A stretch of 63,979 nt of DNA, the filler included, from Diploschistes diacapsis (lineage: Eukaryota), in assembly GCA_023645945.1 (NCBI GenBank). It is 4 parts of 4 records of this genome, joined end to end, with 100 filler letters (N's around TTAATTAATTAA, not from the genome) between each part and the next. Parts side by side here need not be neighbours in the genome. Positions count along the whole stretch, not along the records: positions 32,600 to 48,725 come from JALAIB010000520.1; 3 more parts are not named here. The stretch is one strand, 5' to 3'. A program made the position numbers and the translations under genes. This document shows positions 4,342 to 46,312 of the stretch, piece after piece; position 1 is the stretch's first letter, and each line of letters begins with the position of its first letter. The notes below the pieces were generated by a model, which worked only from the letters and a program-made list of their open reading frames with translations, was not told the origin of the DNA and made no database searches.

Positions 4342-7300
4342 ATGAGTGAGGGAAGATTAACTGAGTTATTGGCGGAGCTTGATGGAATAAGAGACAATGA
4401 TATCTCACGGGCAACATCTCCAGGTGGTGACCCTTCAAACCAGGAGAACCGGAAGACGGCGCGGAATAGGCCGCGAACTTTCCCATACTTTAGATGTTTA
4501 CCGTATGAAGTCGAGGACAATGCCGTTGTTCAGGGCCATCTTTCGGAGATTCTGAAGAACCTCTACATCTCTATTGAAGCAGGAGATTTTGCGCCTGGCG
4601 CCGTACACCGGACAAGAGAACTCAGAAGCTGGCTAGGCCTAAAGTTTGACCTACCAAAAGAGCAACGGATAAAGCTTGTTAAGCTGTACTACGAGCTTTC
4701 GCTAGCTCCAGGCATCGATGCTACGGTCTCTGAGAGATTCGCCAGCATGTTCATGGTCTTGACCAAGTACGTTTCCTACAACACCCTTCATGCTGTAAAT
4801 ACTGACTGTGCTCAGACGGAAACACTATATCAAGCCGGTCAAAGATCTAACATTAGACTGGAGGCCGTTGTTTCGAGAGCTGAAAGTGTTTGTCCTGCCA
4901 TCCGAGTCCGGCTTAGTTCAAGCAACAGTCGTTAAAAGAAATGTTCGCACTTTAGTCAAATTGAGCACTTTCGCTCAGCTATACTGCGATCCAAAGGAAA
5001 TCCCGGCCATGTTGCAAGAGTTTTTGCCCTACTACAACACTTCTTTCGTCGAGGGAGCTTTTGTTGTCGTGGGCTTACTGAACCTTTTGTTTCCAACGTC
5101 TGCTCCCACTCCTGAAGACGAAAATCTACTACCGCAACGATATCTGCCCACATTCTTCCACCTGTGGTCCCTTGTCAATCGTGCCAGGATACTAGACCAA
5201 CAGTTCATTGATACCTTCTCCAGGCTGGCCAGAGATGCGTTACCTGCTAAGCACGTACCATTTTCGGCCTACGGAATTTTTACACAGGAGCAGTCAGCTC
5301 TGATCTTCACAGCCATATTCCGAATGTTGGAGATTCCGGTGGGTCAAGCTCATTCGCCATACAGCACTACCGTCGATGGTAGCTCGGGCCTTGGCGCGAT
5401 CATAGAACGCGATTCGAAGAAGCATCCCATCGGGCACCAGATCGCGAGGTGGATTATTATGTCTCTCTCACCAGCGTGCCTGGATAAGCCAGATTCGATC
5501 CTGGCAAATCTGGAGGGGCTCATACAAGCCGTGGAGACCTTCTTCCACCCTTCTAATTCTGGGACTTGGACGAAGCTGCTCGCTCAATTGGTATACTACC
5601 TTGCAGACTTTTTCGTCATGCGATGGAATCGAGAAAAAAGTGGAGAGATGGATATTCCAGAAGAGCGGAGACTCAACGGTGAGCTTAAACGACGTTTTGT
5701 ATTATGCCTACGTGAAGTAATATTCATGGGCATCTATTCCAAGAGCGGCACTGCCATGAACTTCTCTCTATCGACCCTGCAGAGCCTCGCGTATCTTGAA
5801 CCAGAGCTTATCATACCAGGAGCTCTGCAACGCATTTACCCGTCCATGCAGGGTTTGGTTGAAGTCCATCGCACTACATCCTCCCTCCGAGCATTGCAGA
5901 TACTATCTCGCATCATGGTGCGATCAAAAGGCTACCGGTGTCACGTCACCACCATGCTGGGACTAGCTCTTCCTGGCATAGATGCAAATGATCTTGACAA
6001 AACCCTTTACACATTGTCATACCTTCAATCAGTATGCTACAACATTCCATTACATGACCTTACAGAGGGTCAGGACCAACTAAGCGGTAGTATGCTTGCA
6101 ATGGACTGGATAACCTCTGAAGTGATACGCATGGAACAAGCAGGCGCGAATCTAGAGCTTGACTATGCAAATACTCTAAGTGATGCAGATGAAGAGATGA
6201 TCCTTCGATCATCGACAGCGAGCTTTGCGGAATTCCTAAGCTCCTTTCTTGGCAGAGTCTTTACGCTACTAGAAAATCTTCCCGACGCCGCTAGACTACG
6301 CTCTGGTTCGCCAGAAGAGAATGTGATTAACACCTTGCCTGCTACTTTCACGCCTCTCCTTGCATCGCTGTCGCCCGAATTGTACGACCTCGCCCTCAAC
6401 AAGGTTTTGGAATTCGTTTCAAACCACGTCATTCACCAAGCCCGGGATGCTATGGCTTTCATCTGCAACTCTTTATGCAAGGTGTCCCCAGATAAGGCTC
6501 TCAAAAAATTCATTCCTATGCTAATAAGCTCCATTCGGACGGAGATCGAAGTTAATGGTGCCGCCTCGACTCGGAATACGGGCACGGAAGTGCTCCCGCG
6601 AGATCGCGGACTTGTATGGAGCATTAGCATGCTCGGGATGTGCGTCGTTCATGTCGGAGACGCCGTTGTCCCTTATAAGCAAGAGCTTCTTGACGTTGCA
6701 GTCTACATGCAGCAAAAGTGCCAAGGGACGCCAACTGTACATGTATCCAACTTCATCCACCACTTACTGTTGAACATTACGGGCATTTATACAACCGACT
6801 ACTCCATATTCGAGCCGAGCGACCGGGAGAGAGGAATTGGACCAAACGATTGGGGGAAGTTTGCGAAGCCAGACGAAATAACCATCAAATGGCATGTGCC
6901 CAGCCAAGCGGAGATCGATTTCGCAATCGAGCTCTTGAGGTCGCAAGGCATGTCAGCAATAGGTTCTCTGAGGAGTCTCATTGACGGAACATCGTCTATC
7001 AAAAGGGATGGAAGTGGCAAATCTTGGTCAGATGAAGTCTCCAGAAATCTGGTTCTATTGAGACTTCTCCTTGCTGGAGTTTCCGTTTTCTTCGACTCGA
7101 AAGCTCTGAACGCGCCGGAGGATGGGGAACCAAATTCCCAAGCAAATGGCGACATTGAAATGTCGTATGCGAATGGAGGTCCCCCAGAAGCGTCAAAAGA
7201 GGAGGGGCCGGATGATTTGACTGCAAACGAAGAGAGTGAGGTTCGTCCAACGTTCAAATACACAGATGGCTATGTTTTGGAACGCGAAGGCGAAGCCTAC

Positions 7301-10300
7301 ATTGAGGTGCATCGGTTGCGAAAACAGATCGGCATTCTCTTGCACGAAGTGCATGACTTCCTCATTCGAAATCAGGAGGACGATGTAGCATGTTTCAGCC
7401 CGCTCTACACTGCTTACAAGTCTTGGTTCATCGACGTTGGGATCGAAAAGTCCGCCCACGTTTTGGACCGGGTGACCCGACTGTTCACTGCCGACATCCA
7501 TCCGTACAAGGTGAGCGGCTTGAGGAAAGAATATCCGAGATCGTTATTGTTAAGGAGAGCCAACGTCTATCACGTACAACGCCTACGACATAATGCATCA
7601 CCTCGAGAAGCAACGGACCTAGAAAAAAGTCTGCTCCTTGATCTTGCGCATTCCAGTGTATCATCCTATACCGAGGTCCGCCGAAACGCTCAGAACGCGA
7701 TAGAGTCTGCCTCCAGGGTCATAATAGGTGCACGCCCCCTTTTGATACCGCCCATACTTCAAGCATTCGAATCGGGCGTTAAGGAGTCCGACCTTGGTCG
7801 CATCAAAGGTGCTATCTACACACTTCTGTACAGTAGCCTGGCGAAAACAATCGGCCGTGACTGGCGATATGCCCCCACGATGATTCGGACATATCTGGCT
7901 GCTTGCGAAGTGGATAGACCTTCGGTTCAGAAGCTTTGCGCGACCGGTACCATCCAAATCATGGAATTCGGACGATCCGGAGAGCGCATTGCTATCCTAG
8001 ATCGAGATATCGTACAAGAAATAGCTCCAGCTGAGGGCGACGTTGAAAGCTTGATCAGCAACAAGCGAGATAAGGTCAGAAAAAAACGAGCTGCCATGGA
8101 GGCCAAGAAAGCCAAACTTACTGAGGAGCTTGTGGACATGACCCGGCAGGCCCATTGGAAGATAGCAAGTCGTACCGCAGCAATCGTTGTCACTCTAGGC
8201 TTTAGATTTGAGACGCTCGCCTCAGATAATCTGATCAATCTGCTCGTCAAAGGTACGATCGACAGCCATCCGGGACTGCGCGGTCTTTACTCCGGCGCTT
8301 TGGTGGCCCTGTTCTCGTTACTGGGCACTCGCATTGCTTGTGAGCATAAATACGAGAATTACATTCTCGACAAACAGAAAATCCTCGGCAAAATTGAGGT
8401 GAGTACGAAGGCTAATCAACATGGCTGGACGGAAGAACATCTTGCTAGCTTTGCTCGCCCAGAAACAGCGTATTACGTGGACCACGAGTACCCTGGATGG
8501 CTTGTATGGAGCGACAAGATGCCAGCATATCAGTCAGATATCCGGGAAACGGAAGACCTTGACGGCGAAGAAAAGCGCGTCGTGCAAGCGATTGGATCTC
8601 AGCTTGATAAGGATTGGTTCAAAGCTCTGTTCCGGTATCTTCTTCAAGAACCGCGCGACTCTGGAGCGGACAGATTTCGGGTTGCAAGTGCGATGATGCT
8701 CGGCTATGCCTTCGATCTGATGCATGACGGTCACGCCGCCGTCACGCTAGAGGAAATGAAGGAAGAAATACTAGCTGTGTTTGGAGATGGCAGCGATAAG
8801 CACAAGCATCGCGCCACCTCAGAAATACTCGGCGGCCTTTTGGGCTCTAGCCTCGATAAGAGTATGGAAGTACGGTCGAAGCTTTGGGAATTCTGCATGC
8901 CCTTGGTGTTGAAGATCTTCAACGATGGGTTGACCCCTGAAAATTCAGGCTACTGGACTACCTTTTTGCACCTTCTGCTGCAGGGCAAGGACCCTCGACG
9001 GTCATGGCCGCTTGTCGAGTGGCTTGCGGACTTCAGGCTAGACATGTCGTCGAATGCAGCCTTCAAAGAAAGCTCGAAGGTGATGCTTCTTCAACAATGT
9101 ATTGCAGACTCTGGTTGGCATTTTCAGCTGGAGAAGCCGATCCTAGCAAACTTCATCGACCACATCGATCACCCTTACAAGGGCGTACGTGATGCCGTTG
9201 GTCAAACTTTATCTGCAATCTACCGCACCCGGTACCACGAATCATACAAGGACGTACAAAGTCTAATGGAAGCTCAACGCAACGCCTCCTCCATCGGCCT
9301 CAGGCCGTATGCCTTAACGGATGACATTTCTGCCACCATCAACGATGTGTTCACCCGTCTGGAGACCTGGCGCAAGGAGCGAAGCCCCGGCCAGCAGACC
9401 CCCTCCTCCTACACTTCCGGCTCCAAGACCGTCCTTCTCTGGCTTGACTCAACCCTCTCCTCGCACGAATGCACCCAACTCGTCCCCTTCTTACCCACCA
9501 CCTTCATGGAAGCCCTCCTGCACATGATGGACATCAAAGAAGACCAAGAACTCCAGTCCCTGGCCTACCACGTCTTCCGGCACATTCCCAACATCCCCCT
9601 TCGCGAGGGCGAAGACGCCGAGCTCATCTCGTCCCTCATCCGCATCGGCACCTCCAGCCCCCTGTGGCACCAGCGGCTCCGCGTCCTCATCAACATGCAG
9701 GTCCTCTACTTCCGCCGTCTCTTCCTTATGTCCACAGCACAACAGCGAGCCCTGTTCGATTGCGTCGCGGATATGCTCCTGGACTCGCAGCACGAGGTGC
9801 GCCAGGGCGCGATGACCACCCTCTCGGGCATGATCCGCTGTTCGCGCGTGGCTTTCCGCGAGGACATGGTCGGCACGCTCAACGGGAAATTCACGAAGAT
9901 GCTGCTCGACAATCCGCTGCCGAAGAAGAAGCAGACGCGCGCCGCACAGCTGACTTCTGCCGGAGGAGGACAGGCAGGCTCGGCGCCCAGCACCGGCGCG
10001 AGCACGCCGACGCCGGAACACACCCGCCTCGTGCTGACCAGGCACGCCGCCGTCCTCGGCCTCGGCGCGCTGGTGCAGGCGTTCCCCTACACGAGCCCGC
10101 CGCCGGACTGGATCCCGGGCGTGCTGACTACGTTGGCGAACAAAGCCAATTCGGACCCCGGGGTGGTGGGCAAGAGCGTGAAGAGCATTCTGAGCGATTT
10201 CAAGAAGACGAGGCAGGATACGTGGCAGATGGATTTGAAGGTTTGTTTATTCTGTCCACTTCTCGTGATCTTCGTACAGAGAGCGATATTTGCTAACTTT

Positions 10301-10375
10301 TCTACTTTGCAGGCATTCTCGCCGGAGCAGGTGGAGGACTTGGAGGGCGTGCTGTGGAAGAGTTACTTTGCCTAG
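4342..10375 (+). CDS. BLM10: Proteasome activator Blm10/PA200; join(4342..4766,4816..10240,10313..10375)
   Basis: Very large HEAT-type protein with FFHPSNSG.W, LPGIDANDL.KT, RHAAVLGLGALV.AFPY and FKKTRQDTW; C-terminal SYFA (HbYX-type motif). Introns 4767-4815 and 10241-10312 have canonical signals. Confidence 0.96.
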
Positions 10376-22218: not shown

Positions 22219-22805
22219 TCATAACATTCCTCATTAACCCATTTATCCCTAAGCTTGACCCCATTGGGAGGCCCGTTGTGCTAAGGGCTTGATTAGGGGC
22301 TCGACTGGGGGCGGGGGTCGTAGCACCCAAGCCAAACAGCAACCGGATATTGCGGAGAAAAGTGTCTTTAATAAGTATCCGGTAACAGGATCGATGGGCG
22401 CAATTCTGTACTTTTGGTGTGCTCCTCCGTAGCACCCCAAGTCAGACAAAGACAAAAGACGTGGTAATCCAGGAATTTGAAGAGGACTCTAGCTTTCTAG
22501 CCGAGGAGTGCATGTCGTTATTATTATCATGCCTAACTCTGGGATGCTCCAACATCATTGATTTTCTACCCCTACTTCCGACATTCATATTTGCCTTCCA
22601 GGAGTCGAATCAAGTACGCGACGCGACAACGGAAAGTTATTCAAGAACTTTCATGACATCGTCAATCTTAAGGAGTGAAGACAGAGATTCGCACTATGAA
22701 GCATTCAGGGATGCCCCATAGCAGGACACACCCTACTAAGGTATTGGTCTGGCGGTCTTCACGATTCTGGCATCAGTTACGGAGCCCTGACTGCGGTGCT
22801 CCATC

Positions 22806-25800
22806 ATGATTCCACACAAACGCCCTCGCATCACGGAAAGTAGCATGTCGCCTGATATGGCTAGTCGAGACATGGAAACGAGTAACTCTACTTTGCAGAG
22901 GTTCTTGGGTCCGGCAAGAAAGCCTTGGATGACTGGAGGTGTTACGGGCGTATCGAGCAGCGGCTCCGCATTGCAAGCTCCTTACCCAGAGCCTCCTCCC
23001 TCGGAAACCCATCCCGTAGCGCCTCGTGGAAGACCTCGTGGAAGACCACGCGTAAGGCCTCCAGGAAGACTTGCAGATAGGGGCTTGGTTCACATCAACA
23101 GGACAGTACAGCAGAGACCGGAAGTGAATTCATCCGTGCAAGACGTTCTTCCTATTATTGAACCGTCCACACGTATAAATTCAGCATGCCGAGCGACAAT
23201 CTCACCAACAGCCTCAACTACAATGAGTGTACAATCTCAATCCAGTGGTCAAAGGAACAACACAGACATTACTACTGATTCCGTTGTTGCTGACAAGGGT
23301 GTTACTACTAACGCCATCGATGTTGTTGCAGACGCGGACTGCAGTAGGCTTGAAGAGGCCATCACAATATCATCTCCTGATCCAAGTGAAGAAACAACAA
23401 ATGACAATCAAGTAACAACGGGAGAAAAAAACGTCTCCGGAGCGCCTCCCCATTCAACGACTTCGGCACGGCTCACTAGTCCGGCTGAAGCTCAGAGCAT
23501 CCATGGAAGTCTGAGGACTGTTGTGGCTATCAGTACGACTACCAATGGGCCTGCTCACCATGAAGCCGATACCGCGGCTGTCTCCACGAGCGCGCCTGCA
23601 ACATCAAATCCTGAACATGATAGGCTCAGGGAGCTTGCAGCGCGGTATGGCGGCGTCGACGAGCTGGAAAGACATCTGGGACTGGGCAGGCTGGCCAGGA
23701 CGTCCTCGGACTCCAATCCACAATCTCCAATAACGACACAAGCCTCTACAGATGCAACAATTACCCCTAATGTAAATGCGCAGGTCTCACAAAACATCTT
23801 GAGGAGCGCACCCCTGCCTGGTGATCAGGCTTTTCAGCCATCGATACGATCCCTCGGAGAAGGGAACGATGTAAATCCAGCAAGCTCTGGACCAAACCTC
23901 GCGCAGTCTGAGCAGCATGCAACGACCTCACCAGTCTTCCCTACAACTTTTATTCAGGCCGAGGCGCCACTGAACCCACCAGTCTCCCCCCACCACGCCA
24001 TTTTCGAAGGATTACAGAAAAGACTTGCTGACAGTTGGGAATTTTTGGCTCAATCAAGGACGACACATGCTCGTTCAAAGGGCCCTGAAGAATTTCGTTT
24101 GAGATTGTTGATGGAGGCCTGCCGAAACCATGACCAAGTCTTCCTAGAACTCCATCAGTTATACTGTCTGCTTAGCCATCCAGTGTTTTCCAGCCGCTAC
24201 AGCTTCCAGAAGGCAAAAGCCGGATGCGATGTGCTTAGTGGACTGCTCCTTCCGAACAATCTTCTTGAATACGCTTCTATAAACTGGTTTGCAAAGTTCC
24301 CACAGGTCGCTCCTCAGTCAGCCCAGGATTTCGAACGTATGTTTACTGGGACAGGAAATCGGCTTGGCGCCCTCGCTCAAAAGTGGCACGACTTCAGAGC
24401 GAGACACGTAACAAAGAATATTCCTCCCCATGTGAAAGATATCCAGGATATCTTAAAGGTTGATTCCCCGCTTCTGCAGCGTCTAATCTTTAGGTCCATC
24501 CTTCGCGGTTTTTGGCCAGGAGAGGAGGACACTTGCTTCGAGTCCTGCGCGCAAGTGTTTAGGGACAGCCAAAAGCAGTATACAAACTGGCTACGCACTT
24601 CGAATGGCGACGAGATGCCAGCTCAGAATGTACAGAACTGGCAAAATACTCTGTTAAGCAAGTACTCCGTTTGCGTGGCTGGTCATCGACACCATAATGT
24701 CTGTAGGGGTTCTCCAACAACCAACTCTCCAATCAACCCAAGTCACTACTCTGGAGGACAGCAAAGTTCTCCAACATCGGGCCTACCGCCAAGCCTACCG
24801 CAAGCCCTGCCACCTGCAAATCTGGATTATTACCTTGTTCCCTCACCGACCTCCCCAGGACAACCCCAATTTCCGGCAACTACCGCAACAGCACCTGGAC
24901 CGACCCAAAACTCTTATACTCAATACTATTCAAGCACAACGGTCAATGGCCCAAACCAACCAAGACGGCAAGATTCAAATACCGCTTTGCCCCGTCCCAG
25001 TCACTTTGTTCCACCGTCATGGACTACAAACCGTAGCATCCACAGCCCAGTAGCTGGATCATTCTTTCAAAATTCTATAGGCAGCCGCCCTAGCCCTCAA
25101 TCTACACATGTTGCTGGCCATATCCCTCAAGCAACTTCATCGTTGAATTCATCTCCTGGCGTTACCGGATCTTCACAGGTCCAGCAGCCTACTGTACGAC
25201 GTCAAAGCGGCCCGGGATCTGGGTCAGGGTCATGGCCTACGAGTTCCGAAGCCGAGGTTGTCTCCCACACTCGTGGGATCATCAATAGTCTCTCATCATC
25301 CCACGCATTACCGGTGTTGCCCAATAGAACACAAAACACGAACCCACTTCTTTTTCCCTATATTCCGTTGAGGAAGCAAAATGTCCAACAGCAAAATCAA
25401 CTCGGAATTCCTGCTCATCAGGCTCATCTCCGGGATGCCGTTTCCTTTTCGGTCTTTGGTAAGGCTTCTGGACCTGGAAGCGAAAGGATGTTTTCATACT
25501 TCAGTAAATTCGACTTTCAACCTGTCGTCATCAAGCCAACCACGCTCAATGCTAGAAATAAGTTTATGATCAATGCAGAAATGTATTCGAAGCTTCCACG
25601 ACTGAAGTCCGACACTGCACTTGGAGGTCCTCCGACACGGTGCTTGCATCTGGACTCGATACTATTGAGAGTACGATGCGTTCGGAACGGCGCTGGTGCC
25701 ACCTCAGAAGTAATGTCGGCGGCAGCATGGGCAGCAGCCGATACTGAATGGCCTCAATCGCTCACTCTGTTTATAAATGATCGGTATCAGCAAGTACGAA

Positions 25801-26465
25801 GGAAGACCGATTGGGGAAAGGATCTCGCGATCGATATCTCTTCAATCGTGAAGGAAGGCGAGAACACCATGCGAGTCTCGTTGTTGCAAGGCTCACAAGT
25901 TCAAGACCGCAAAGTCTGCTACGCGTTGGCAATCGAGATATTGTCGATCGGCAATGTAGACTCTGTGAAGAAGCAGGTGCAGGAGCTGGAGTCTTCTGAG
26001 ACCAGACAACGTATCCGCAGGCAGCTCAATAGCGCCGATGACGAGATCGAAATCATCTCAAACGAGCTGGTCATCAAAATCACCGACCCATTCTCTTCGC
26101 AGTTGCTGCAGAATCCCGTCCGCGGTAAGGACTGTGTCCATTACGAGTGCTTCGATCTGGATATCTTCCTGCAGACGCGAAAGACGAGCGATCTTCTGCC
26201 CGAGCAGTTCCGCTGTCCCATCTGCGGCTGCGACGCCCGACCAAGCAACTTGCAGACAGATAATTGGTTTGTGGAAATCTTGGCGAAGATAAAGGAGACT
26301 GGCGAGGACGCCAGAGCGATCATAGTCAACAAGGAGGCGGAGTGGAGAGTCAAAGAGGAAGAGAAAGAGGGCGAGAGCGGAGACGGCACAGGAGTCAAGA
26401 ACGTCGCGCAGGATCATACCCCGGGGCTTGCGGGCTCGGCACCCGACATCATTGAGTTAGACTAA
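22806..26465 (+). CDS. MIZ/SP-RING zinc-finger protein (ZMIZ/Siz-like, putative SUMO E3), 1219 aa
   Basis: C-terminal DPFS..L..PVRGKDCVHYECFDL..F....FRCPICG. AT-hook-like PRGRPRGRPR near the N-terminus, long S/P/Q-rich disordered regions, terminal SIM-like DIIELD. Confidence 0.88.
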   Translation: MIPHKRPRITESSMSPDMASRDMETSNSTLQRFLGPARKPWMTGGVTGVSSSGSALQAPYPEPPPSETHPVAPRGRPRGRPRVRPPGRLADRGLVHINRTVQQRPEVNSSVQDVLPIIEPSTRINSACRATISPTASTTMSVQSQSSGQRNNTDITTDSVVADKGVTTNAIDVVADADCSRLEEAITISSPDPSEETTNDNQVTTGEKNVSGAPPHSTTSARLTSPAEAQSIHGSLRTVVAISTTTNGPAHHEADTAAVSTSAPATSNPEHDRLRELAARYGGVDELERHLGLGRLARTSSDSNPQSPITTQASTDATITPNVNAQVSQNILRSAPLPGDQAFQPSIRSLGEGNDVNPASSGPNLAQSEQHATTSPVFPTTFIQAEAPLNPPVSPHHAIFEGLQKRLADSWEFLAQSRTTHARSKGPEEFRLRLLMEACRNHDQVFLELHQLYCLLSHPVFSSRYSFQKAKAGCDVLSGLLLPNNLLEYASINWFAKFPQVAPQSAQDFERMFTGTGNRLGALAQKWHDFRARHVTKNIPPHVKDIQDILKVDSPLLQRLIFRSILRGFWPGEEDTCFESCAQVFRDSQKQYTNWLRTSNGDEMPAQNVQNWQNTLLSKYSVCVAGHRHHNVCRGSPTTNSPINPSHYSGGQQSSPTSGLPPSLPQALPPANLDYYLVPSPTSPGQPQFPATTATAPGPTQNSYTQYYSSTTVNGPNQPRRQDSNTALPRPSHFVPPSWTTNRSIHSPVAGSFFQNSIGSRPSPQSTHVAGHIPQATSSLNSSPGVTGSSQVQQPTVRRQSGPGSGSGSWPTSSEAEVVSHTRGIINSLSSSHALPVLPNRTQNTNPLLFPYIPLRKQNVQQQNQLGIPAHQAHLRDAVSFSVFGKASGPGSERMFSYFSKFDFQPVVIKPTTLNARNKFMINAEMYSKLPRLKSDTALGGPPTRCLHLDSILLRVRCVRNGAGATSEVMSAAAWAAADTEWPQSLTLFINDRYQQVRRKTDWGKDLAIDISSIVKEGENTMRVSLLQGSQVQDRKVCYALAIEILSIGNVDSVKKQVQELESSETRQRIRRQLNSADDEIEIISNELVIKITDPFSSQLLQNPVRGKDCVHYECFDLDIFLQTRKTSDLLPEQFRCPICGCDARPSNLQTDNWFVEILAKIKETGEDARAIIVNKEAEWRVKEEEKEGESGDGTGVKNVAQDHTPGLAGSAPDIIELD

Positions 26466-37012: not shown

Positions 37013-40000
37013 ATGGCCACAGCCCGCGGAAAGGCAACAATGCCACTCGGTTCTTCAGAGTGGATTCAGCAAGAGAGAGAACAGCTCGCGCAATTCAAGG
37101 AGCAGGAGCTTGAAGACTTCGTCTTCTCAGTTCGTAACGAAACAGAATGGCTGAACGAGCATATGACAGATATCTTCAACAATACCCAATTGTCCGTCCG
37201 TCCTAGACTGTGCACAGCTTGGGTACTGACCATAGTATTAGAAACGTTACCGAGATTTTCAAGACACCTGGTAAGCTTAGAGGCAAGACACCACGGACTG
37301 CACGGATGCACAGTCCCGAGATTCGAGCTGTAAGTTTTTCTTCACATCATCTTAGAAATAGTAGCTCATCTCCGAAAGCCGCTTACCGAGATCTTCGGGT
37401 CGAGCAAGAGAGTAAACAGTAGTCCAATACGTCAAGAACCGGCTCGACAAGAACAGAAGCCCTTTCCAAGTCCCAGCAAATATGCTGTTCCATTCGAGGA
37501 GGAAATCAGTCTCAGGGAGCAATGCGCGCCTGTGCCAAAACACACCAAGCAAAGTCATGACTCTGGCTACCATTCCGGCTACCCTGGGATGACAGAAGAT
37601 GAGATGGAAGTTGATGCTCCCGATGCACAACTATTAGTGCCACAAGTCATAGAAGACCACATAGGAATAGATGCCGAAGGCTCAAAAGCAGAAGGAAAGC
37701 GTATGTCTATAGATGGAAGGACAACGGAAGGATCATTCCATTCGGCGAGGGAAAATATAACAGCACGTGATGTTCTAATGACTGATGCTCCAGGACGCGA
37801 AGGTACCGTCCCTCTCGACCTTCCTGGCTCATTCCCAAAAGAGACTTCGTTTCCTCCTGTGCCTCTCAACGTTGTCCCCAATGTCCAGGAACCAAAAGAG
37901 CACACACTGGAGCAGGTAATTGAAGTCGAAGACGGCAGTCATCCTGCAGAAAGCCCTGATTCTACTGTTGATGGTTCAAGTCCTCCCAAACAGCTTGTTC
38001 GGAAAAGCAGTTTGACCTTTGCTGCGCTTCCAGCTCGCGAGCCACTTGCAACGAAGAAGAGCATTGGTCATCAAGCACGGACAAGCAATGCCGATGCATC
38101 AAGGACCGCGACATTCAATCGATCAAGTTATATGGGTAGGTTTACTGGAGGCAAATCACTTGGTGGTAGCCGAATCGCGGATGAAGACCAAATGGATGTT
38201 GATGAGGACGAAAAAGTCTCGGATCGAGAAGATCAAGAAGAACACGCGAAAAAACTGCATAACAAATCATCAACCCAAAGGCTCCATGAGCGAATCAATC
38301 TCTTAGGTAAGACCCAGCCTGCCAGGCCCACCAAATCGATACCTTCAGCTGCGGCCTACCAGCCTACATATCCTGAGCTGCGTGATGACACCGTAGAATC
38401 TGAAGACAGAGATGTCATCCAGGCGTCTGTAAAGGAGTCAAGGGAGGGGCCACAGGCAGATGAGGAGGAAGATTGGATCATGCCCGCGGCACCGAAGGCA
38501 GAAGTCGAGACGCGTCCTACGCTGATCAAGAGCCGATCTGTAGATGTTATGGAGCATATACAAGGAAAAGAAAACATTTCAGGGGCAGATTTTGGGTTGG
38601 ACCCAGGCGAGAGCGAGCAGACGCGACAGCAGTCTCCTCTGCGATACCAGATCGATGCTCGAGGAGCTTCGCCGTCAAAAGCTCATGCTAAAGCTGCGTC
38701 GACTATTGAGTTGGCCTTCTCGGCTCAGCCGCAAACACATGGCAATCAGAAAGCCATTTCAGTGTCAAACCCTACTCTGCCTACGGAGACCACAACACCA
38801 ACTGGATCACCTAACTCCAAATTCTACCTTGATGGTCATTTGAGCGCATCAAAGTCTAAGCTACAATCGATTATGAAGTCAGCAAAGAATCTGTTCTCTA
38901 GCAGCGCTAGAGTTTCGAATCAAGCCAAGATGGAGACAATGTCGCCGTCTCCAATGAAAATGCGAATGCTAGCAGGGCAAGGTCTAAATGAAATTGCAGA
39001 GGTCTCGGGTTCAGAGCATCCAGCATATCCCGACCTCAACCAAGATCGCACTGCGCCACCGGAGAGTCCGGCAAAAGGCAGAAGGACGCGAAGCTCAACT
39101 GAGAAGGAACAGAAAAAGCGCGAGAAAGAGGAAAAGGAGAGACAAAAGGCAGAGGAGGAGCTCAAGAAAGCTAGAGAGCAGGAGAGACAGAAAGCCACGA
39201 AGGTTCCGGACAAAACCAATGCACCAGTTGCTGCTTCAACTATCGAGCCACCTGCGACTGGGTTGACACTTGAGCAGACCTCAAAGCCAATCAGGCAAAG
39301 TCCTCGCAGACTACAGAATCGTGAAGATCATCAGACAGCGGTGAATGAGAGCAAAATTGCTGCCGGTCAATCTGTTCGACCACAGTCTCAGGCCTCTCAG
39401 ATTGCGAAACCCAGAGAGATCCGCCGACCGATGAAGCCGACCAAAGATACAGCTCCGAAGTCAAAGCCACAGCCAGTATCAATTCGCATTGGAACTATGT
39501 CTCAACGCATTCCCCTTAGCAGCACAGCTCTGGCATCTGGTCAACAAGACTCATCAGCTCCTGTTTCTATCCCTGCAAAGCATGTGCCTCCGGCCAAGAA
39601 GCCAAGTATTGCTTCTCAGGCCTCCACAACCGCTCCCAGCTTCAAGAGTTCTGTATCTTCAAACACATCCAAGGCAAAAGCGCCCATTATTCGAAAAGTT
39701 GAACGTAAGCCAACGGCCCAGGAAGAAGCACAGAAGCGACTTCAGCAGCAGCGAGAGACTGTGCGCGCAGCTTTGAGTGAAGATCCAAAGAAGACGGCCC
39801 AAAAACAAGCGATCGATCAAAGGAAGTTGGACTTGGCAAGAAAAGAACAACAAGATAACCAGCGGCTTGGCAACGAGGCAGCGCGATCAGGGAATGCTGA
39901 AAGGACGCAAACACAAGGACCTCACAGACCAGGGTTCGGAGCTTCGAGGCCATTGTCCAGACCAGTTGAAATGCAGGAATTCCCGAAACCACCTATGGGC

Positions 40001-40913
40001 AATCCAGCTCACCCGAAGAGAGTCATCGATTTTGATCATGAAGACGAATTATCACGGGCAGCGAGACCGATCCCTGGTCAAAACTACCAGCCGAATGAGG
40101 CTAAACGCCGAAAGACGGACGATGAGGAGATCTCAGAGCAGCCTGCAAGACCTGCCATTGGCCCTCCAATCCGACAATCAAACATTAGAAAGGTAAGCTG
40201 TAACTCCAAGTGCTGGATGGCTAAAATTTATCAATCTGCAGGACGGTTTTAAGTCTTCACTCTTTGGCGGCAATTACCCCATGGCTCCTCCACCAGCAAG
40301 CATGCATGCTGGTCCATCAAGGCCTCCTGTTGCAGCTCAGCAACATCAGCAACAGCCTCAAGCCCACACTGCTTACCCAACTCGCCCTGGTCATCCAATG
40401 GATATGGCCAAGTTCACTAACGGCAAAATCCCCTTTGCCGACGCACCCAACCCACCACCTCAATCAGCTTATAAAACCCCAATGGCCATCACCAAACAGC
40501 CTGGCCTCGCCCAGCCAACACCCAAGACGTTCTCCCCTATGTTCCAAAATGGCGAAAACATTGTCCTCGACGAGATCGAGACAAGCGAGGACGAAGAGGA
40601 CTCGGACGACGAGCGCGACAAGAAGAAGCGCCTGCCGGACTGGACGCGCACGCCGAACATGAACCAGATCCTGCTGTCGCAGGAGGCGGTCGACACGGAC
40701 GCCGTCTTTGGGCCGGTCGCGCCCGCGAATCTGGAAGAGTGGTTCACAAAGGACAAGAGCCGGTTGCATAAGTTGCGGATGAGGACCAGTAGCGCGAATT
40801 GGTTCGGGCCGGATAGGCTTACGGAGGATGAGGTGAAGAACGACGTCGAGGCGAGGCAGAAGATGAGCAAGGATGGGGGATGGACGTTTGGGTTGTCGAA
40901 GCTTAATGAGTAG
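37013..40913 (+). CDS. Inner centromere protein INCENP (Pic1/Sli15-like), 4 exons
   Basis: N-terminal DFVFSVRNETEWLNEHM.DIF and KTPGKLRGKTPRTAR, a central charged helix, and C-terminal IN-box LPDW....FGP..P.NLEEWF...RTSSANW.GPDRLT. Introns near 37192-37240, 37330-37378 and 40193-40241. Confidence 0.9.
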
Positions 40914-42133: not shown

Positions 42134-43753
42134 ATGTCGCTATCTCGATGGGATCCGCGATATACAGTGGCCGAGCAGCGGGTGCGCTTTCCACACAAAG
42201 GTTTGTCTTTCGCCTATCGTCGTCTGTATCTTCGGTCTCCTAACCCAGTCCGCAGCTGGCGAGCATAACCTGGTGCCTCATCTCAGACCGGGGCACGGCG
42301 AGCTCGGGCACTTGAACACTATTCGCATCGGCCGACAGAACGACCTCCAATTTCTCGATCTCACCTTTCACAGGACCTTTGGCGGCGAAGCAGATTGGCG
42401 GAGCGTGTATCCATCTGACGGTTCGGGTGTGCTACCCTTGCGTTGGGAGGGAGGATCACTCGTGCTCGGAGCATATGGTAAGCGAAGCCTTGCAAGCACC
42501 AGACCAAAGAGGAACTGACACACACCTACAGACGACGAAGACCTTGGCCTGCAAGTCAGAGCCCACGGGACTTTCAAAATTAAAGTCTTCTTCGCCGACT
42601 GCAACGTAATCGCCGCGAAACCGCGCCCGGTTCCGTTCGCCGGCATCCAGGTCATACCTCCCTCGGACGGGGGTGATATCCGACAGGACTACCTAGTCAT
42701 CCAAGGATCCGAAGCGCAGCAGCTCGAAGGCTTCCTGTCCGGCATCGCCGGCACATTCCACCAGTACTTCCACCATCTTCTGCCCAATGGACGAACGCCA
42801 GCGGACAGGACGCTGGAAGTCGATATTGTTCCGGCGAAAGAACAGAGTCTCTATCCGCGCAACATAGGGGAAGTCAGGATCTGGCTGCAGCACCGCGATG
42901 AAGCTGGCGAGCTCAGGAAGAGGGAGGTTCGCGCTCGTGAGACGGATAGTATGTGGATGGTTAAGCACAGGGCTCGGAAGTATGCGGGAACTGCCAAGGC
43001 TGTGCAGCTACTCTTCTTCCGCAGGACAGAGGATACTGGGGTACTGGAGGAGCTGGAGGGTTGGTTATCAGATCTGGGGTTATTGTCGTAGTGCTGATGG
43101 AGCTAGATTGCCCTACTGTCGGCTCTTACGGGATCAAATCCGTTGAGTATTTCATATTATAATAAAGGATAATTACTGATTACATATAGGGCGACAGTGT
43201 CGAAGTCTTCACGATCAAAAAACCTCCTTCCGAACCTATACTTCGCAAACCTTACGAACCGGTCAAAACTCTAAGGCCAGTTGAAGGGAATATTTTGGAC
43301 GCCGAGGCTATTACATGGGACGATGGCTACAGTTATACGCTGAAGATTGAACTTCAAAACTTGGGGGTGTGTCCAATCCATCGCCTTCAACCTGCAGCTT
43401 CTGTCGAGTCGGACGAGGGAGAGCCTGAGGACGATAGTATCCCGAAGGAAGCGGACCATACATTGCTCGCCAAGGACTACCCTTCGAGCGATGATGCCAA
43501 CAAGCAGGTTGACTCTGGTATCTTCGGTCCGGCCAGTGAAGGTCAGGCCATAGACGAGCCGATAGAGGAACCAGCCAGCGCACCTCCTTCCAACCAAATC
43601 ACCGAGCGTCATCCCTGGGACAGCGGACCGGTAGAGGAATGGCTGCCAGACGCCAATACTGCGACCATCGAGCCACAACCGCCGGAATCAGAGCCCGACC
43701 TCATCGATCTCGGTTCCGAAGGTTCCGACCACGGGTGCTGCTACTTGAAGTGA
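42134..43753 (+). CDS. Divergent member of an uncharacterised ubiquitin-insert protein family (Ubl lacks di-Gly); join(42134..42200,42256..42477,42532..43059,43107..43141,43190..43753)
   Basis: ACCATG start; four GT-AG introns with branch points; 1416 nt with no stop. Motifs LDLTFHRT, GGSLVLGAY-DDE, FKIKVFFADCNVI, QDYLVI, LEVDIVP, Ubl-like ..LEELE-DCPTVGSYGIKS-GDSVEVF and WDDGYSYTLKIELQN all parallel the downstream canonical copy. Confidence 0.78.
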
Positions 43754-44277
43754 TAGATTCGAGGAGAAGGAAAAGGTGGATAGACGACACCATAAGCTGC
43801 TGAACAGCCAGGCCTACGGATGCGGTCTTCACTCGAGGTCTGGAGTATGTCAAATTTGGTAGGAAAACATAAGGTACTGCAAAGATTTTGCAACAGAGTG
43901 TCCAAATGTCCAGGTTAACGAGGCAGATAGGTGCGTCAAATAGTGTGAACTTGCGGTAAATATGTTCGCCTTTTCTTAGGACTATGGAATCTAGGCGGTG
44001 AGCCAGACCAATGCTCACGCCTGTAGATGTTCGAACACTTGCCCAAATCCTCCAAAAAGCCCCTTTGCAACTTGACTTCACTTCTGCACATCTGGCACCG
44101 TCCCTTGCCCTTGCTTACACTTGAGTCTTCGTGTCCTGTTTGCCATATATATTGCCGGCCTCCCCCACTCACGAAAGAGGATTTTCAGAAAAACACCATC
44201 TACTTTGTCAACGGCATCAAGTTGTGAAGCCCATCCCAATTAGCAAGATAGATGTGACTTACTAATGATCACGGCAG

Positions 44278-45632
44278 GTCCAACCACCATGTCAAATAAA
44301 AGCACCTTAAAATGCAGCCTTCGGCGGAATTCCGCTCTCTTCGAGGGCGAGCGCTTAAGTCAGCGGCCACACTATACTGGTGCCTGATAGTTAAAGGCCG
44401 CATTCCTTCCACCCGACATGGGAAACTATCCCCTCTTCCCAACCTCGGAGTTTGCGAAGAAGACGCCAGCAGAAATGGCGGCTGAAGGAGGAGCGATTGT
44501 TTCCGATGTATTATAAGTAGCTGCTGTTAGATTGACGAGGCCGAGAGAGCCTACACGGACAATGCAGAGTGGGAAGCAATGTGGATCAATTTCGAGTCCG
44601 ACCGTCCGTTTGCAATTAAGATTCGTGTCGAAGGCGTTAACGCTATCTTTTGGACGTGATTGCTCCGGCGCCAGAATAGCGGAATGGCACAGCCACCGGG
44701 ACAGGCAAGGTCTGGCAGTATGTGGCCATGCCACTAGGATCGGGATGCTCGGTTGAGGCTCAGGTCACCGGACAAGAGAGGGTGGGCGGTATCGAGTTTG
44801 AGCTCACGCCGCAACCTCTTCTCGTAATTTGTCCTCCTATGTTAGGAGACAGGCGTTACAAAATCTTGGTCAAAACCCCAACGGGGAAAATCGCAAACTT
44901 CTAGTGCACAGTGAGCAGACTATTGACGTGCTAGAAGAGCAGATACGCGACGAGGAAGGAATTCCTTCCGAAAGATCAGCGCTTGATTTTTGCTGGCAGG
45001 CAACTAGAGGGTAAGTGCACAATATCAAGAGTATCATAGCAGGGCTAAGGATACAGCAGATAGTGACACAAACAACATGTGCAAAATAAGGCCACTATGT
45101 GCTTCCATATTTGGACAATAATCGAAGCTGATCACATCTCAGGAGTGCACCCTACACCCAGTGTTACGCATCAGAGGCGGCAGAAGGGTACCAGCAGAGA
45201 CGCAAATGGAATTAGCAGTGGGCGATATGATCACGCAATCGATCAAGAAAGACCTGTACCCCTCTGGCTCTTGGGACAATAGCTAAACCATCGTCTTCAA
45301 CGTTCAGATTCTAAACTCGGGCATGTTTCGCCATGTCACCGGTCTGGCTCCGTCCTCGTCACCAATTACAGCTAAGACGTATGCAGTCTTGAGCTTCCCG
45401 TTGTATAAGCTTCTTGAAGAGACTTTCGCTTATCGCAGGCAACTGCAATGGGGTGAAATCAGTAGGCCATATTAGATAAGGATCAGGAAAGCGAGGAGGA
45501 GGGCTCTGCGTCTGAAGAGCCATCATACAAATTTCCACTCGTGGTAATCAATCCCCAGCGTGCCGGACTTCCTTTTAGGTCTGTTAACGATATGAAAAAA
45601 ATCTCTTCAGAGCATAGATTATGCTTCGTTCT
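44278..45632 (+). pseudogene. Canonical ubiquitin-insert family gene, inactivated
   Basis: FLPPDMGNYPLF, EAMWINFESDRPFAIKI, QYVAMPLGSGCSVEAQVTGQE..GGIEFELTP; ubiquitin ILVKTPTGK..TID..EEGIP..DQRLIFAGRQLE..ECTLHPVLRIRGG; then TIVFNVQILNS..VTG.AP..PITAKTYA. Stops at 44677 and 45284, several frameshifts, and donors mutated GT>AT at 44513 and 45086. 5' limit approximate. Confidence 0.88.
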
Positions 45633-46312
45633 GAGCCGGAGAAGACATTCACAGAAGGGGTGTCAGTTTTGTGATTGGCGGCCTGGCTAAGAGAGTTTGG
45701 GGTGGAATCGAAGCATGCAACAATAGAAGCTAGCCAGCAGGAGCTGCATAGCACACTGAACAGCCTGGGCCTTGCTCTGACGAATCATCTGTATCCCGTT
45801 TTTGGTGTAAATCAAAAGCCACATGCCGTTGTTCCACCACGTACGCACTCATCCACAGGTTGCACATCATTCTGTCCCAGCAAAGGACCCAAGATTGGAG
45901 GCGCTGCTTGCGCCGATACGGAACCGTCCATCGTAGACTAGTAGTAGGCAACCATGGCCGAAAAAGCTCTGACCCAAGTCAACTCCATAACTATGTGGTG
46001 GGATTCCGGTTCCTGCTCATTGGGAGAAGATCTCTTAATGCCATGATCGTGGAGGTCAAGTTTGTGCTGTTGTGGTTGTTGTTGATGTTGCTGGTGTGGA
46101 ATGCAGAATGCAGAGTGCAGAGACGAACATGGATCAATATTAGCTCCCTTTAGCGGCATCATCAATGATAATCACCTTTTTCAGTGATCGCCCTTGGTAC
46201 GCATATCCCACCCACCCACACAATCTTCTTCTGCCTCTTCCTGAGTCCCTAGGCCTTCCAAAAGCCCCAGGCAAAGGGTCCCATTCAAGCTCTGATTCGA
46301 CTACGTCGTTAT

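Follow-up and report, generated by a model that had tools for sequence, protein, structure and literature searches.

The stretch of DNA analysed here (the window; 63,979 nucleotides of Diploschistes diacapsis, assembly GCA_023645945.1, in four parts joined end to end) is ascomycete-type nuclear DNA, with short GT..AG introns and a G+C content of about 50%. Two genes in it, adjacent and both on the plus strand, are the subject of this study: a predicted five-exon gene at 42134..43753, hereafter the target, and a pseudogene at 44244..45642, hereafter the neighbour, with all positions counted along the whole window. The target encodes a predicted protein with a ubiquitin-like (Ubl) domain that has no terminal Gly-Gly, whereas the neighbour reads as the remains of a gene in which ubiquitin is embedded in a homologue of bacterial “integral membrane proteins” (IMP).

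The target gene comprises 1416 nt, i.e., 471 codons without an internal stop, and its four introns of 55, 54, 47 and 48 nt are all of the GT..AG type, each with a CTAAC-, CTGAC- or CTGAT-like branch site; the donors are, in order, GTTTGT, GTAAGC, GTTGGT and GTTGAG. An earlier note on this DNA, made from the sequence alone, had proposed this model as an intact gene of which the list of open reading frames (ORFs) shows only fragments. The model was reproduced exactly, and the stop-to-stop ORF list of the locus indeed holds only pieces of 133, 190 and 187 aa. Exon 1 (42134..42200) provides the ATG, 22 codons and one further base, and is followed by intron 1 (42201..42255; 55 nt, GTTTGT..CTAAC..CAG). 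Exon 2 (42256..42477), whose frame is open for 133 codons, ends in ..EGGSLVLGAY plus one base and is followed by intron 2 (42478..42531; 54 nt, GTAAGC..CTGAC..CAG, phase 1), which matches the first intron of the neighbour (44513-44567) in place and phase. Exon 3 (42532..43059) encodes the N-terminal region and then, from 42867 onward, strands 1-4 and the helix of the Ubl, and intron 3 (43060..43106; 47 nt, GTTGGT..CTGAT..TAG, phase 1) splits the codon after ..LE. Exon 4 (43107..43141) is a 35-nt micro-exon that supplies the loop and short helix ahead of the last Ubl strand. It is separated by intron 4 (43142..43189; 48 nt, phase 0, 21% G+C), with a weak GTTGAG donor and a CTGAT branch site, from exon 5 (43190..43753), which encodes the last Ubl strand (to 43222, ..VEVFTIKK), a Pro-Pro pair, the WDDGYSYTLKIELQNLG block and an acidic Pro-rich tail that runs to the TGA stop at 43751-43753.

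Codon log-odds trained on six neighbouring genes give the target +0.122 per codon in frame, as compared with 0.116-0.242 for the training genes themselves, -0.16 and -0.27 for the off-frames of the target and -0.18 to -0.32 for intergenic DNA. The modelled frame is favoured in exons 2, 3 and 5 each, with scores of +0.057 (versus -0.07 and -0.27 in the other two frames), +0.133 and +0.156, respectively. An alternative in-frame acceptor for intron 3, lying 15 nt upstream (43092-43106) and adding five residues, was rejected: it would leave a 32-nt intron, place the branch site in the exon and break a gap-free match to two relatives described below (P0003 and P0004). Its use is unlikely and could yield a minor isoform. 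If intron 3 or intron 4 were retained, translation would run into an early stop in either case.

To collect relatives, exon 3 was scanned exhaustively with HMMER against 1,835,955,588 representative proteins at E ≤ 1e-3. Four of the five matches are true relatives, namely the nearly full-length P0003 (447 aa, E 7.7e-10) and the exon-3 fragments P0001 (172 aa, E 4.7e-30), P0002 (153 aa, E 6.8e-22) and P0004 (169 aa, E 1.9e-8); the fifth, P0005 (516 aa, E 5.1e-8), is a tandem-repeat protein with seven short matched stretches and was dropped. The relatives are 26-49% identical to the target protein (P0003 and P0004, 26-31%). P0003 aligns with the spliced target over residues 103-393 (E 6e-27, 26% identity), across both the exon 3/4 and the exon 4/5 joins, and splicing of intron 3 yields ELED+CPTVGSYGIKS, a gap-free match to ELEDRHDLGFYGIES of P0003 and ELEDRRTIGEYIAKS of P0004. 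The P0003 counterpart of ELED-CPTVGSYGIKS is ELED-RHDLGFYGIES, and that of VEVFTIKKPP is IEVYTSKYLPP. Both P0003 and P0004 share the domain order of the target, and P0003, the sole relative that reaches the end of the Ubl, has a GG-less ending.

Three of the relatives carry suggestive patterns at the intron sites. P0001 reads ..ELE-G-K.. at the intron-3 site. P0004, after ..ELEDRRTIGEYIAKS, continues with Val. P0003 contains at residues ~163-180, with low model confidence, an 18-aa insert that opens with Val-Glu precisely where intron 4 interrupts the target; here the database gene call has probably left an in-frame intron of 54 nt unspliced. These patterns would be as expected from unspliced GT.. 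introns, so that introns 3 and 4 seem to be conserved in the family, with gene callers failing at the micro-exon. P0002 appears to be a copy with a frameshift, or else the product of an assembly error, with the break at the first strand of the Ubl: over 23 codons, a single DNA sequence could encode residues ~91-113 of P0001 and, with a shift of +1, residues ~126-148 of P0002 (at random offsets, 1.5 codons are compatible on average). A word-index search with exon 3 against longer proteins gave no match, and one with the family alignment returned P0003, P0001 and P0002 only, with nothing beyond the representatives; two metagenome loci (L001 and L002) match only around the forced 8-mer pattern and were judged chance. 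The predicted target protein belongs to a small, fast-evolving and extremely rare ascomycete family.

The Ubl spans residues 209-295 of the target, between the N-terminal region and a WD block. Its fold was modelled on P0003 by running AlphaFold2 on the cropped candidate domain with a four-row alignment that includes exon 3 of the window. The resulting model has a mean predicted local distance difference test score (pLDDT) of 63.1 and a predicted template modelling score (pTM) of 0.53, and it contains, in segment numbering, strands 2-9 and 20-27, a helix 32-43, strands 51-57 and 60-63, a short helix 70-73 and a strand 97-101. A Foldseek search of this segment against the PDB returns 130 matches at E ≤ 0.001; among the matches listed are ubiquitin and its variants, SUMO1, ISG15, FAT10 and Hub1, together with the Ubl domains of TBCE, TBCB, Get5, HOIL-1L and plexin. 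A beta-grasp fold had been suggested for the region encoded by ~42870-43220, and in the P0003 model the topology superposes on ubiquitin; with moderate confidence, the centre of the target can be read from this relative as a ubiquitin-type beta-grasp. As a lead only, a feature search of a protein atlas places three Ascomycota PF00240 clusters topmost, at scores of only 0.78-0.80.

The Ubl ends with ..VEVFTIKK and then PP in the target, and with ..IEVYTSKY and then LPP in P0003, so that neither has a Gly-Gly; judged by where the structural alignment ends, Lys-Lys of the target and Lys-Tyr of P0003 take the places of ubiquitin residues 75-76. The loss of the di-glycine that had been proposed for this Ubl is thus directly legible in the target as KK followed by PP. 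Without a Gly-Gly, and with Pro next, a ubiquitin fold is neither released by deubiquitinases nor activated by E1 and E2 enzymes. Since the Gly-Gly is missing, the target Ubl would therefore be a fixed, built-in domain, i.e., an interaction module.

The rest of the protein consists of an N-terminal region of ~200 aa ahead of the Ubl, a short conserved block, ITWDDGYSYTLKIELQNLG, after it, and the tail. That an acidic Pro-rich tail stands in place of the usual C-terminus can be read directly: it has 30 D/E, 6 K/R and 17 P in 129 aa, ends in DLIDLGSEGSDHGCCYLK and is presumably disordered. Because the highest 19-aa hydropathy of the target is 0.86, the protein is expected to be soluble. Within the tail, a clathrin-box-like LIDLGS motif with Asp at -1 lies at 43700..43717 (+), and D-LIDL-GSEGSD at residues 454-466 fits the L-[IL]-[DE]-[LM] core with acidic flanks. 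LIDLGS is common to the tails of the target and P0003, which are otherwise unalignable; a common 6-mer or longer arose in 7 of 2000 shuffles. According to PMC11543927, yeast Ent1, Ent2 and Ent5 bind clathrin through LIDL, Asp at -1 strengthens the binding, and the Asp-flanked LIDL is the optimal yeast clathrin box. At the very C-terminus (43739..43750, +), C-Y-L-K with another Cys before it is CaaX-like, a weak lead. In a CaaX box, a Cys at -4 is followed by an aliphatic pair and by a last residue of a suitable kind; the end C-C-Y-L-K does have the Cys at -4, but its Tyr and terminal Lys are atypical.

The neighbour was read in three frames and compared with a profile built from bacterial IMP sequences only, 32 in number. 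This profile scores 117.1 bits against the neighbour (E 1.8e-34) and, among 2424 six-frame ORF pieces of the window, matches exactly the five pieces of the neighbour, which are colinear. Three of them (44403-44501, 44570-44647 and 44686-44796) form the IMP N-lobe and two (45167-45280 and 45302-45421) the C-lobe. Between the lobes, at about 44853-45181 and between profile positions 166 and 193, lies a near-canonical ubiquitin that ends in RIRGG with more protein after it. A micro-exon (45057-45085) lies between introns 45011-45056 and 45086-45142. Smith-Waterman (SW) scores of the neighbour are 184 and 152, reached by none of 200 shuffles. A word-index search with a piece of the neighbour gave no match, and a protein-atlas search with it found nothing.

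In the three-frame reading of 44.2-45.7 kb, the neighbour shows at least 8 lesions, comprising frameshifts, stops and dead donors. They include two stops at 44386-44391, frameshifts near 44500, 44892, 44967 and 45440, a stop and frame change with the loss of ~26 profile columns after 44650, a TAA stop at 45284 and a further stop near 45474. Two of the three donors are dead, ATAAGT at 44513-44518 and ATAAGG at 45086-45091, as if by G-to-A changes in GTAAG. Judged from its sequence, the neighbour is a dead member of the ubiquitin-IMP fusion family, and the earlier description of the adjacent copy as a ubiquitin-insert gene that has since died is borne out. The codon split by its first intron now reads TAG. 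Repeat-induced point mutation as the cause of the decay is unsupported (TpA/ApT 0.77; (CpA+TpG)/(ApC+GpT) 1.33). Read-through of the GTAAGT after LEG, with ..TIS.. in register, was rejected for the two-intron reading with the micro-exon, which is preferred because it offers a perfect donor, a branch site, introns of normal size and a ubiquitin of near full length.

The canonical family to which the neighbour belongs is already published: Sibbald et al. (2019, BMC Genomics 20:38, PMC6332867) describe ubiquitin fused mid-protein to homologues of bacterial “integral membrane proteins”, and ubiquitin inside the IMP protein in 63 of 88 fungal species.

Each of the three introns of the neighbour has a counterpart among the four target introns, at the same position and in the same phase, as the earlier note had seen and as can be read directly in both genes. 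Intron (i) follows a Tyr codon plus one base (target 42477|42478, ..GAY; neighbour 44512|44513, ..PMY). Intron (ii), in phase 1, falls in the codon after ..LE (target 43059|43060; neighbour 45010|45011, with a perfect GTAAGT), and intron (iii), in phase 0, ends just before the last strand (acceptors 43189|43190 and 45142|45143). Introns (ii) and (iii) enclose a micro-exon (35 nt long in the target, 29 nt in the neighbour) within the ubiquitin fold. Placed via predicted secondary structure and ungapped spacing, these two introns presumably correspond to ubiquitin codon 52 and to the boundary between codons 63 and 64. By a rough estimate that allows some slack, three coincidences of position and phase between four and three introns over ~350 alignable codons would arise by chance with a probability far below 1e-4. 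The two genes also lie on the same strand, with the same order of parts and 665 bp from the target stop to an internal ATG of the neighbour, a gap that is shorter if measured to the upstream exon piece of the neighbour at 44244. The three shared introns, the tandem same-strand position and the same part order therefore make common descent of target and neighbour the best reading, one that we regard as fairly probable and that draws on intron positions and phases, tandem adjacency and part order, not on sequence statistics.

Direct comparisons of the two genes indeed give no significant similarity. A tblastn search of the window with the target model leaves 44.4-45.7 kb without a match at E ≤ 10. 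Of the 2424 window ORFs, the target-family hidden Markov model (HMM) recovers none but its own exon, and it scores -1.8 bits against the neighbour, a value reached by 131 of 2000 shuffles. The SW score of target versus neighbour (39) is reached by 103 of 500 shuffles, the target Ubl compared with the neighbour ubiquitin gives z 0.2, and global alignment gives z -0.1 to 0.2. The motif-by-motif parallels with the neighbour that had been put forward are, in these SW, HMM, Ubl and global tests, at chance level.

Taken as a whole, the locus is in our view best explained, with the balance tipping only slightly in favour, as a real gene with a GG-less Ubl whose family would have descended from fungal ubiquitin-IMP fusions by an old duplication. 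A number of results weigh against this explanation. Neither the target exons nor the five family rows match Pfam ubiquitin (PF00240) or related models even at E ≤ 10, and a PDB sequence search with the target family gives no match. The evidence for the fold, itself of moderate confidence, comes from a relative and not from the target's own spliced sequence, and the full-length P0003 model (pLDDT 40.1) is unusable. The start of the gene is the weakest part of the model: exon 1, the least certain exon, scores -0.05 in the modelled frame versus +0.13 in another frame and is covered by none of the relatives. The apparently frameshifted P0002 shows that the family does decay, and the clathrin-box reading, a lead, is drawn from a six-residue motif in two sequences. 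The bacterial IMP profile scores -2.1 bits against the target (reached by 320 of 3000 shuffles); hhalign of the target family with IMP gives E 0.25 and a probability of 0.2%, reached by 49 of 150 column-shuffled controls; and pairwise SW with the 32 bacterial IMPs gives a mean z of 0.35, with one of the 32 above z 3, the score with the IMP of genome G055 being reached by 137 of 1000 shuffles. The lack of a significant profile alignment to the canonical family, which had been named beforehand as refuting the earlier reading, is what these tests show (IMP HMM -2.1 bits, hhalign E 0.25). With no significant sequence or profile similarity, membership of the target in the IMP family is not demonstrable by sequence.

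These comparisons could suit an unrelated Ubl gene that lies by chance beside a pseudogene, or a ubiquitin cassette copied with its introns into an unrelated gene, in either case with N- and C-terminal regions that do not derive from IMP. None of the IMP profile, profile-profile and pairwise tests is significant, the motif parallels are at chance level, no target piece occurs among the window matches of the bacterial IMP profile, and the C-lobe motif of the bacterial members (PPITA..Y..G.PWF) is absent from the target, which has the acidic tail instead; the only counterpart of the C-lobe is the WD..N block, with W-to-N spacing as in the neighbour. The sole suggestive result is the SW score with the bacterial IMP of genome G001 (57, reached by 4 of 1000 shuffles), whose alignment keeps the register that would be expected (..PLR, GG..Y, F.[IL]KV, QDYLV, L[ED]GF). 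The target DY pairs with the IMP QDY in 12 of 32 best local alignments, as compared with 0-3 of 32 for the other four family members. What speaks against an unrelated origin is the third shared intron, which lies outside the Ubl, after ..EGG[AS][IL]V[FL]xxY, in the same phase. The best local alignments with the neighbour and with G001, which are independent, both set the Tyr of the target ..GAY on the family ..PMY at this very intron, and three exact intron coincidences have, by the rough estimate above, a chance probability well below 1e-4. We consider an unrelated origin unlikely.

The target could also be an intact-looking relic, non-functional or unexpressed, either a young pseudogene or a lineage-specific gene that is being lost, given that the family is extremely rare, one relative is frameshifted, the neighbour is dead and donor 4 (GTTGAG) is weak. 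Against this improbable alternative, 471 codons are open over five exons with every splice signal intact, the codon usage resembles that of working genes, conservation at 26-49% identity is not retained by neutral DNA, and decay over a similar length in the neighbour has left at least 8 lesions; the target locus is probably a real and functional five-exon gene. As to the timing, the earlier note had inferred neofunctionalisation after a tandem duplication, with death of the parent copy. The dead partner is confirmed, but a recent event is not. A recent tandem duplication at this locus, after which one copy rapidly acquired a new function and the parental copy died, would account for the tandem position, the shared strand and the shared introns, but similarity between the copies is undetectable at both the DNA and the protein level, and the derived architecture is found already in relatives that come from other organisms and are 26-31% identical; this scenario seems very improbable to us. 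Because the copies lack detectable similarity, distant relatives share the architecture and P0003 is already GG-less, the split is old and predates those lineages.

Under the explanation favoured above, an old duplication of a fungal gene for ubiquitin inside IMP would have given rise to the target family. Both IMP lobes would then have diverged beyond recognition, the C-lobe being largely lost and a new tail gained, and the canonical partner adjoining the target would have decayed later in this genome. The protein may act as a soluble clathrin-binding scaffold, whose fixed Ubl would engage ubiquitin-binding modules, e.g., a UIM or UBA domain in an endocytic or proteasomal receptor. Such a scaffold, presenting its Ubl to ubiquitin-binding modules, is a tentative proposal that we hold to be doubtful, and the role of “adaptor or decoy” suggested for the target is conjecture. 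A still bolder idea, which we think has little chance of being right in full, is that the target represents an unrecognised ascomycete family in which remodelling of a bacterial-type scaffold with embedded ubiquitin has produced a Ubl adaptor that cannot be cleaved, binding clathrin through D-LIDL and maybe lipid-anchored at Cys-Cys-Tyr-Leu-Lys. If true, such an adaptor could form a link between ubiquitin receptors and coats; alternatively, it could serve as a decoy to the processing machinery of canonical ubiquitin-IMP proteins.

The target resembles the fungal ubiquitin-IMP fusions in having an N-terminal region, a ubiquitin-fold insert and a WD..N block in that order, and it resembles the member next door in its tandem position, three intron positions and phases, and the micro-exon in the ubiquitin fold. 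Unlike them, it goes unseen by the bacterial family profile, its Ubl has neither a Pfam match nor a Gly-Gly, and it lacks the PPITA..Y..G.PWF motif of the C-lobe and adds an acidic Pro-rich tail with LIDLGS. Similar to integral (type-2) Ubl proteins such as Get5/Mdy2, Dsk2/Rad23 and the tubulin cofactors B and E, it would hold an unprocessed, unconjugated beta-grasp inside a larger polypeptide, and structures of integral Ubls rank among the top structural matches of the P0003 segment. It differs from these proteins in that there is no sequence relationship, the Ubl is internal and appears derived from a genuine ubiquitin insert, and a UBA or other partner domain was not found in the target. 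With yeast Ent1, Ent2 and Ent5 (PMC11543927), it shares a D-LIDL in an acidic, disordered C-terminal region, the target motif being predicted from sequence; unlike them, it has no ENTH/ANTH or other membrane-binding domain, and the motif occurs in two family members only.

In full-text literature searches, only Sibbald et al. (2019) was found on ubiquitin-IMP fusions, and GG-less derivatives were not found. The canonical ubiquitin-IMP family and integral Ubl domains are known already, whereas these searches found no publication on the GG-less, remodelled, intron-sharing offshoot, on its rarity or on the dead canonical copy that accompanies it. Ubiquitin-IMP fusions occur widely among fungi, and the target locus would illustrate one evolutionary fate of such a gene, in which an embedded, potentially releasable ubiquitin becomes a fixed Ubl, the host protein is mostly remodelled and the canonical copy dies. 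It offers a natural pair of cleavable and non-cleavable versions, together with a clathrin-box candidate. It is also an example of a gene broken by predictors at a 35-nt micro-exon, three of its four database relatives being exon-3 fragments; as predictors break on the micro-exon, similar genes may be under-annotated.

On the bacterial side, a contig scan with a piece of the neighbour found one true homologue, of 332 aa (L003:1572-2567); two further loci from the same scan (L004 and L005) were matches forced by the search pattern and were discarded. Within the phylum of L003, bacterial IMP occurs in 2 of the 301 genomes sampled. Of 401 genomes from a second phylum, 42 match at E ≤ 1e-5; 32 of these hold strong full-length homologues (E 2.7e-64 to 4.1e-79), and in the remaining 10 the match is confined to those columns of the query that belong to an inserted domain. 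IMP is thus patchy in bacteria, the proteins in the 32 of 401 genomes of the second phylum being ~330 aa long and 40-52% identical to the first homologue. Searches of the IMP part against Pfam, NCBIfam, PADLOC and PDB sequences gave no match. A membrane-like segment was looked for in 32 bacterial IMPs (L003:1572-2567 and 30 ORFs of L009-L038 among them), and none reaches a 19-aa hydropathy of 1.6 (range 0.70-1.34); on this count the name “integral membrane protein” looks like a misnomer. One bacterial IMP of 485 aa, in genome G055 (L007:607-2061, minus strand), carries an MshEN domain (PF05157, E 7.7e-17) between its two lobes, inserted at the same site as ubiquitin in the fungal IMP. It would seem that the inter-lobe loop of IMP tolerates the insertion of modules that bind ligands or partners.

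Elsewhere in the window, positions 4799-10372 encode the proteasome activator Blm10/PSME4 and 22791-26462 an SP-RING protein of the SUMO ligase type; nothing points to a functional connection of either gene with the target. An INCENP gene (37334-40910) lies directly upstream of the target, and the other core genes of the window include those for a PIG-V mannosyltransferase, an aspartyl protease, a SAM-PH protein and an acyl-CoA dehydrogenase.

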